NCBI RefSeq assembly: GCF_057098645.1
Contig: NZ_CM169472.1
DNA length: 64,000 nt
Direction: 5' to 3' (one strand)
Notes under the pieces: generated by a model
The model's database searches: none
The model's input: the letters and a program-made list of their open reading frames with translations, nothing else
What the model was told of the DNA's origin: nothing
Shown here: piece by piece, positions 21,726 to 22,117 of the stretch
Layout of the letters: each line of letters starts with the position of its first letter
How positions within the stretch are numbered: position 1 is the first letter of the stretch
Made by a program: the position numbers and the translations under genes

Positions 21726-22117
21726 GCTTTTGTTCTCCTTGTAGGATGTTAATAATATGTGGCATAAGCGTTAAATGTAGGGGTATTGGCAGTTTTGTTT
21801 AGTATTTGGGCGACAGATCACGCAAAAGTAGAATTGTGCAAATAAACGGCAGGGTAATTTTTGAAGGTCAGCAACAAAAGTTGATTAATTCTTTGAGGAA
21901 CATGCAGTTATGCATTCTGTTGAAAAAGAGGAAGATACTGACTAACTCTAAAGTGGTATTTTGCATGCACTTACAATTGATTAAAGACAACATTCACAGT
22001 GTGGTTATTTGTTACACATAGGGGCGAGCAATGTCATGACAGTGTAGGTGCGGTTACTGTCGTGAAAAACAATAAAAACCGCCATTGCAACAATGGCGCA
22101 ATTCGGATGAAGCCCCT
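21726..22117. promoter_or_regulatory. Divergent acs / nrfA control region
   Basis: 392-bp AT-rich spacer between divergent acs and nrfA; contains an FNR-like half-site TTGATTAAAGACAA at about 21977-21990. Individual sites not mapped further. Confidence 0.45.

Follow-up and report, generated by a model that had tools for sequence, protein, structure and literature searches.

The spacer between the divergent genes acs and nrfA, at 21726-22117 of the window (the whole 64,000-nucleotide stretch of contig NZ_CM169472.1 that was analyzed), appears to be the characterized acs-nrfA regulatory region of Escherichia coli, built of two largely separate modules set back to back. We give this reading a probability of about 0.95. 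The acs-side module spans about 21726-21880 and the nrf-side module about 21943-22117. The feature is already known, being among the best-dissected complex promoter regions of E. coli, with its FNR site at the textbook position. Our analysis yields a coordinate map of the known regulatory elements for this window, together with two minor leads: conserved hairpins in the nrfA leader and a rare single-nucleotide polymorphism (SNP) of the O145 lineage at an otherwise invariant regulatory base. The coordinates, the identity to strain K-12 and the conservation are our own results; protein binding and regulatory effects come from published work on the identical K-12 sequence.

Identity of the spacer with the K-12 regulatory region

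The spacer and the genes around it are placed as follows.

19767-21725, minus strand: acs, acetyl-CoA synthetase (652 aa), from the list of open reading frames (ORFs); NCBIfam NF001208 (acetate--CoA ligase) 1119.7 bits, TIGR02188 1040.3 bits
21726-22117: acs-nrfA intergenic spacer, 392 bp, between the divergent acs and nrfA
22118-23554, plus strand: nrfA, cytochrome c552 nitrite reductase (478 aa), ATG at 22118; NCBIfam NF008339/PRK11125 867.8 bits
23593-24165: nrfB, downstream of nrfA

Downstream of acs lie yjcH and actP. An earlier note on this DNA had described an AT-rich spacer of 392 bp serving acs leftward and nrfA rightward, and the coordinates, the ORFs and the guanine-plus-cytosine content (38.8% in the spacer vs 53.5% in the whole 64-kb window) agree with it. 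Alignment with the characterized K-12 region, which the note had proposed as a check, shows that the spacer of E. coli K-12 MG1655 has the same length and the same flanking genes and is identical at 390 of the 392 positions. The two SNPs are a T for G at 21916 and a G for A at 21963 (-109 and -62, respectively, from the start of the nrf promoter, pnrf). The spacer of the E. coli O145 strain RM9872 is identical throughout (392/392). A 651-bp query across the spacer has matches in 5413 of 5426 complete E. coli genomes, where the annotation is always acs on one side and nrfA on the other. In the BL21 record NZ_CP170101.1 the query matches in two pieces, with about 130 extra bases and an "integrase" feature annotated between acs and nrfA. 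The dense regulation that the note attributed to this region in E. coli is on record as well: FNR, NarL/NarP, IHF and Fis are given in PMC5434802, and CRP in PMC2763269.

Conservation was assessed on loci retrieved with a degenerate DNA pattern on the Acs N terminus, which returned 41 enterobacterial loci; Salmonella was not returned and so lies outside this footprint. In 17 of these loci (15 Citrobacter species and 2 further Escherichia), nrfA is divergently adjacent to acs. These 17 spacers were aligned with those of the window and of K-12 (19 in total), and the identities given below compare the 15 Citrobacter species with the window base. The mean over the whole spacer is 0.80. The value reaches 1.00 at the NarL/NarP site, 0.96 at the FNR site and 1.00 at the -10 hexamer of the main acs promoter, acsP2, and it is 0.57 in the middle of the spacer, at 21889-21942.

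The FNR site and the nrf promoter

The nrf operon of K-12 has a single promoter, pnrf, with three IHF and three Fis sites (PMC5434802). The elements placed on this side of the spacer are the following.

21943-21958: NarL/NarP 7-2-7 pair TAACTCT-AA-AGTGGTA (TAACTCTAAAGTGGTA), centre 21950.5, pnrf -74.5
21951-21983: zone between the NarL/NarP and FNR sites, published target of IHF I and probable target of NsrR, conservation 0.90
21977-21990: FNR site TTGATTAAAGACAA, centre 21983.5, pnrf -41.5, two mismatches to TTGAT-N4-ATCAA; it also covers the -35 region of acsP1, the distal acs promoter
22003-22017: Fis I-like site GGTTATTTGTTACAC, centre pnrf -15, one mismatch to the Fis pattern, a degenerate motif
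22013-22018, plus strand: pnrf -10 hexamer TACACA, of the K-12 type and not the TACACT of O157:H7
22025, plus strand: pnrf start (C)

Three independent published landmarks agree in placing pnrf +1 at 22025: the FNR site at -41.5, the NarL/NarP site at -74.5, and the mutation p+102A, with +102 as the last base of AGG, the Arg codon of nrfA at 22124-22126. The base at 22025 is a C, as the start is described in PMC5434802, and the SNP known at -7 in O157 maps to 22018, as expected with this start.

The earlier note had reported an FNR-like half-site at 21977-21990. Its position was exact; what lies there is a whole 14-bp site, TTGAT-N4-GACAA, with one perfect arm and both mismatches in the other. 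With its inverted repeat and its centre at -41.5 from a start mapped in K-12, TTGATTAAAGACAA would fit a class II FNR-activated promoter. Published work on K-12 agrees: FNR bound at pnrf -41.5 is enough to give maximal induction (Godfrey et al. 2017, PMC5434802), promoter activity falls from 5119 to 54 units in an fnr strain (PMC5434802), and nrfABCDEFG is directly activated by FNR through a motif at -41.5 (Myers et al. 2013, PMC3688515). The "acs/nrfA" FNR peak was called by all three algorithms for chromatin immunoprecipitation sequencing (ChIP-seq), by ChIP-chip and by an earlier ChIP-chip study, with a score of ln(p) -10.3 (PMC3688515 Table S5). By our own count on that table, this score is better than those of about three quarters of the scored FNR peaks, and after coordinate conversion the peak summit falls about 17 bp from the site. 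The note had staked the FNR site on matrix scans, and the published PatSer score of ln(p) -10.3 supports it. This score is the matrix evidence used here; FNR and CRP sites were counted in the window by consensus pattern.

One could object that TTGATTAAAGACAA is a chance match in AT-rich DNA and that FNR acts elsewhere or not at all. The pattern TTGATNNNNATCAA, with at most two mismatches, has 49 matches in the 64-kb window vs 28.8 expected, two of the matches fall in this very spacer, and one arm of the site is wrong at two of its five bases. However, the site is identical to the K-12 site at -41.5 that suffices for maximal induction, the ChIP summit is next to it, and the conservation in Citrobacter goes against chance: the sole change in the weak arm, AACAA instead of GACAA in 7 of the 15 species, brings it closer to the consensus ATCAA. 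We regard a chance match as close to impossible, and as already effectively refuted. The credibility of the FNR site comes from its position, orthology and conservation, not from the pattern match itself. Elsewhere in the window, the FNR ChIP peak "uvrA/ssb" (ln(p) -10.91; Myers et al.) converts to the uvrA-ssb spacer at about 8300-8480, near which the FNR scan gives a single match, at 8308-8321, with two mismatches.

With at most two mismatches, the pattern TACYYMTNNAKRRGTA has a single match in the 64-kb window vs 1.9 expected, and it is the one at 21943-21958, which is 100% conserved in all 19 aligned spacers. It fits the 7-2-7 target, two inverted TACYYMT heptamers 2 bp apart, and lies upstream of the FNR site. 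Binding of NarL or NarP at -74.5 displaces IHF from IHF I, a site from which IHF represses pnrf (PMC5434802). Matches to the IHF consensus with two mismatches occur near pnrf -49 (21970-21983), -106 and -133 to -145, in a motif too degenerate for them to count as evidence. The same holds for the best match to the NsrR palindrome, at 21951-21973 with seven mismatches; a literature search on NsrR together with pnrf gave nothing new. The Fis I-like site has its centre at -15, probably the position of Fis I at pnrf. Fis I overlaps the pnrf -10 and represses pnrf in rich medium (PMC5434802).

In the proposed mechanism, FNR at TTGATTAAAGACAA (-41.5) would activate pnrf when oxygen is lacking, this being a promoter with weak hexamers (-10 TACACA, start 22025). 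IHF next to FNR and Fis over the -10 would keep pnrf down, and, with nitrite or nitrate present, NarL or NarP at -74.5 would displace IHF. The 93-nt nrfA leader would then come under CsrA control at the start codon.

The acs promoters and their CRP sites

On the acs side, the map is as follows.

21726-21745, minus strand: acs 5' untranslated region from the acsP2 start (C), including an AGGAG ribosome-binding site
21752-21757, minus strand: acsP2 -10 hexamer TATTAT, placed from the start at 21745
21774-21779, minus strand: probable acsP2 -35-like hexamer TACATT, 16-bp spacer, assigned by comparison with the sequence in PMC2759082; conservation 0.98
21797-21811: Fis-consensus match GNNYAWWWWWTRNNC, centre acsP2 -59, one mismatch, degenerate motif
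21807-21822: CRP I site TGGGCGACAGATCACG (CGTGA-N6-GCCCA on the acs strand), centre 21814.5, acsP2 -69.5, three mismatches to TGTGA-N6-TCACA
21832-21850: conserved block GAATTGTGCAAAT and Fis-consensus match (21836-21850, two mismatches, centre acsP2 -98), a putative Fis site
21860-21875: CRP II candidate TTTGAAGGTCAGCAAC, centre 21867.5, acsP2 -122.5, with four mismatches to the CRP core and below the reach of a scan that allows three
21949 and 21958-21963, minus strand: acsP1 start and its probable -10 hexamer, TAAAAT in K-12 and CAAAAT here

Olvera et al. 2009 (PMC2759082) used rapid amplification of cDNA 5' ends (5'RACE) to map the acsP2 start to a C that lies 20 nt upstream of the acs ATG, and they print this promoter together with that of acsP1, whose start is at -224 relative to the ATG. 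Both printed sequences match the window, with minus-strand starts at 21745 for acsP2 and 21949 for acsP1. At 21728-21743, all 19 aligned spacers of Escherichia and Citrobacter agree and seven further genera show high conservation, and the identity of the acs leader is 0.99. The acsP2 -10, 100% conserved in the Citrobacter species, is nearly invariant in 14 loci of the seven other genera.

According to Kinnersley et al. 2009 (PMC2763269), the first CRP site of acsP2 includes the A found at -93 relative to the acs ATG. In the window this base is 21818, inside CRP I at 21807-21822. The strong half of that site, CAGATCACGCAA, is invariant (1.00) in the Citrobacter species and nearly invariant in the genera without an adjacent nrfA, nine genera overall. 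The centre that we computed, -69.5, agrees with the position that CRP I reportedly has at acsP2 (Beatty et al. 2003). CRP II is reportedly centred at -122.5 in the same study. The candidate there has an identity of 0.67, with only the TTTGAAG half conserved. A second FNR-like match, TTGAAGGTCAGCAA at 21861-21874 (two mismatches), overlaps CRP II in the same spacer, and only its left half is conserved. The Fis-consensus match at acsP2 -59 is presumably the acs-side Fis site reportedly described by Browning et al. 2004, the match at -98 would likewise fit an acs-side Fis site, and the block GAATTGTGCAAAT (21832-21844) has an identity of 0.93. Outside the spacer, a perfect CRP core, TGTGAACTATATCACA with no mismatch, occurs at 9529-9544, between the divergently oriented genes yjcB (9117-9398, minus strand) and pdeC (9825-11411, plus strand).

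At high cyclic AMP, CRP bound at the tandem sites -69.5 and -122.5 would activate acsP2 (start 21745) as a class III promoter, and Fis and IHF would counteract this activation. Contact between the two modules would be limited to acsP1, the weak distal promoter. FNR activates pnrf and represses acsP1 totally (PMC5434802), and the map suggests why: the acsP1 -35 region lies under the FNR site, so that FNR would turn acsP1 off and pnrf on.

Evidence for two separate modules

The boundary between the acs and nrf modules lies in the middle of the spacer.

21889-21942: spacer middle, poorly conserved, carrying the SNP at 21916

Citrobacter spacers have an insertion of 37-40 bp between 21933 and 21934. 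Furthermore, acs occurs without an adjacent nrfA in Enterobacter, Leclercia, Cedecea, Kluyvera, Lelliottia, Pseudocitrobacter and Silvania, where the side running from the ATG through acsP2 to CRP I is almost unchanged and the TTTGAAG half of CRP II is mostly kept. Nothing like the NarL, FNR and pnrf block was found at the acs loci of these seven genera (14 loci). An acs module that is kept without nrfA, next to a middle that is poorly conserved and variable in length, points to two back-to-back modules and not to one integrated switch.

The alternative is a fully integrated bidirectional region, in which FNR and NarL/NarP would co-regulate the main acs promoter and nrf through one nucleoprotein complex, coupling acetate scavenging to nitrite respiration. 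IHF and Fis sites across the whole spacer speak for such coupling, as do the overlap of the FNR site with acsP1 and that of the second FNR-like match with CRP II. Going by its title, Browning et al. 2002 can be cited on both sides, since it has both "shared regulatory region" and "independent regulation." Yet a pnrf fragment from -87 to +10, which ends about 60 bp short of the CRP sites, keeps its anaerobic and nitrite induction (PMC5434802). The acsP2 promoter and CRP I are intact in genera that have neither nrfA nor the FNR/NarL module, and the middle is the least conserved part and tolerates an insertion that would shift the helical phasing between the halves. We therefore consider full integration unlikely and retain the two-module reading. 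The control that the earlier note called shared is so in a narrow sense, in that the FNR site and the weak acsP1 overlap; acsP2, with its CRP sites, belongs to a module of its own, about 280 bp away from pnrf.

Several points weigh against our overall reading of the spacer. By pattern count alone, the FNR match is not above chance. The CRP core pattern, with at most three mismatches, gives 182 matches in the window vs 196 expected, which is the chance level, and CRP sites are not placeable by pattern alone. The placements proposed for CRP II, the acs-side Fis sites, IHF II and III and NsrR are tentative, the consensus matches there being weak. The evidence on binding and expression comes from K-12, and since the SNPs at 21916 and 21963 fall in regulatory DNA, regulation in the strain of the window may not be quantitatively K-12-like. 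Finally, a scan of 21650-22200 for the sigma-70 consensus found no promoter. This last result is expected, because the promoters are activator dependent and have poor hexamers, and it is uninformative as evidence.

The nrfA leader

The conserved leader of nrfA, whose role Godfrey et al. 2017 (PMC5434802) called unclear, contains the following elements.

22025-22117, plus strand: nrfA 5' leader from the pnrf start, 93 nt
22034-22065, plus strand: hairpin 1, 11 bp, in the minimum free energy (MFE) fold
22066-22079, plus strand: A-rich tract AAAAACAAUAAAAA between the hairpins, conservation 0.80
22080-22098, plus strand: hairpin 2, stem CGCCAUUG/CAAUGGCG, 8 bp, in the MFE fold
22105-22127, plus strand: translation-initiation region with GGA motifs at 22105-22107 and 22125-22127, a published CsrA target; motifs conserved

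The MFE fold has the two hairpins and a z of -1.85. All 11 pairs of hairpin 1 are kept in 14 distinct Escherichia and Citrobacter leaders, with seven varying by wobble and one showing a compensatory change from A-U to G-C. In hairpin 2 the loop varies in sequence and length and the stem is kept, three of its pairs varying by U-G or G-U wobble. For both hairpins over the 14 leaders, 99.6% of the pair cells are paired, with ten pairs varying by wobble only and one compensatory; when the structures are slid by 1-3 columns, 27-65% of the cells pair. Shuffle controls were only modestly exceeded (13-15/500) and the sequences are closely related. The conservation of the leader hairpins is thus suggestive, not proven. 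A permissive search of Rfam returned only a spurious, sub-threshold match to a long noncoding RNA.

The A-rich tract and the C at 22080 make up five A-R-N triplets (AAA AAC AAU AAA AAC). A role of Hfq at this tract is speculation, and a literature search on nrfA with Hfq and small RNAs gave nothing on the leader. A terminator-like call on the minus strand at 22098..22080 was rejected, since the natural wobble variants of the stem would be A-C mismatches on that strand. Control by CsrA comes from the literature. The mutation p+102A, which changes the nrfA Arg codon from AGG to AGA within a GGA motif, relieves CsrA repression of an nrfA-lacZ translational fusion (PMC5434802). The sequence ACAAGGAT at 22121-22128 is identical to that of K-12, and +102 corresponds to 22126. 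It is tempting to see the two hairpins and the A-rich tract as a further, undescribed element of post-transcriptional control, and we offer this as a tentative idea, somewhat doubtful for now.

The small ORF ytcB

A small ORF covers part of the nrf-side module.

21965-22021, plus strand: ytcB (18 aa, MHLQLIKDNIHSVVICYT), annotated as b4821 in K-12 RefSeq and intact here

The ORF runs across the FNR site and the pnrf -10 and stops 4 nt short of the pnrf start, so it would need a plus-strand promoter further upstream. In a literature search, the name ytcB turned up only in Bacillus papers and in one unrelated paper. The annotation in K-12 over exactly these positions, and the intact ORF here, raise the question of whether 21965-22021 is conserved by selection on the YtcB protein and not on the FNR, Fis and promoter elements. 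The start codon argues otherwise: most Citrobacter have ATA in place of the ATG, so that the ORF itself is not kept, while the FNR site and its flanks stay conserved in the same species. Conservation also continues leftward, outside the ORF, through the NarL site. Selection on the protein is thus very improbable, and the loss of the start codon suggests that the conservation of 21965-22021 is regulatory and not coding.

SNPs of the O145 lineage

Both differences from K-12 are rare alleles. An exact 61-mer with G at 21963 is found in 58 of the 5408 E. coli records that match, most of them O145:H28, and one with T at 21916 in 37 of 5397, that allele too being found mainly in the O145 lineage. 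K-12, two other Escherichia species and all 15 Citrobacter species have an A at 21963. This position is the first of the probable acsP1 -10 (TAAAAT to CAAAAT), falls in the zone of IHF I and probably of NsrR, and sits 2 nt before the ytcB ATG. By analogy with the -7 change in O157:H7, the O145-lineage change at 21963 could retune the control of nrf or of acsP1, a suggestion that we rank with the leader element, as possible and rather unlikely.

Comparison with known systems

The closest known system is the acs-nrfA region of K-12 itself, as studied by Browning, Busby, Wolfe, Cole and co-workers between 2000 and 2017. Its FNR, NarL/NarP, Fis I-like, -10, CRP I, CRP II, acsP2, leader and CsrA sequences are all identical here. 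The spacers of the 15 Citrobacter species share the divergent acs and nrfA, an identical NarL/NarP site, a near-identical FNR site, the acsP2 core, the strong half of CRP I and both leader hairpins. They differ in their length of 431-436 bp, which is due to the insertion in the middle, in the AACAA weak arm of the FNR site in 7 of the 15 species, and in the start codon of ytcB, which is mostly lost.

A more distant likeness is with the E. coli nir promoter, which also has a class II FNR site at -41.5 and an upstream NarL/NarP site that relieves repression by the nucleoid proteins IHF and Fis. It differs in locus and sequence and is not known to have a divergent CRP-dependent partner promoter.

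Finally, the pnrf promoter of enterohemorrhagic E. coli (EHEC) O157:H7 also comes from a Shiga-toxin lineage and belongs to an otherwise identical nrf-side module, but it has a T at -7 (22018), where the window keeps the K-12 base A. In O157:H7 this T results in a stronger -10, activity independent of FNR, and escape from repression by Fis (Godfrey et al. 2017, PMC5434802). The EHEC -10 is printed as TATACT in PMC5434802 vs TACACT in the O157:H7 sequence that we aligned; the position, -7, agrees. Since 22018 is an A, as in K-12, nrf expression in the strain of the window would be expected to depend on FNR and to be repressible by Fis.

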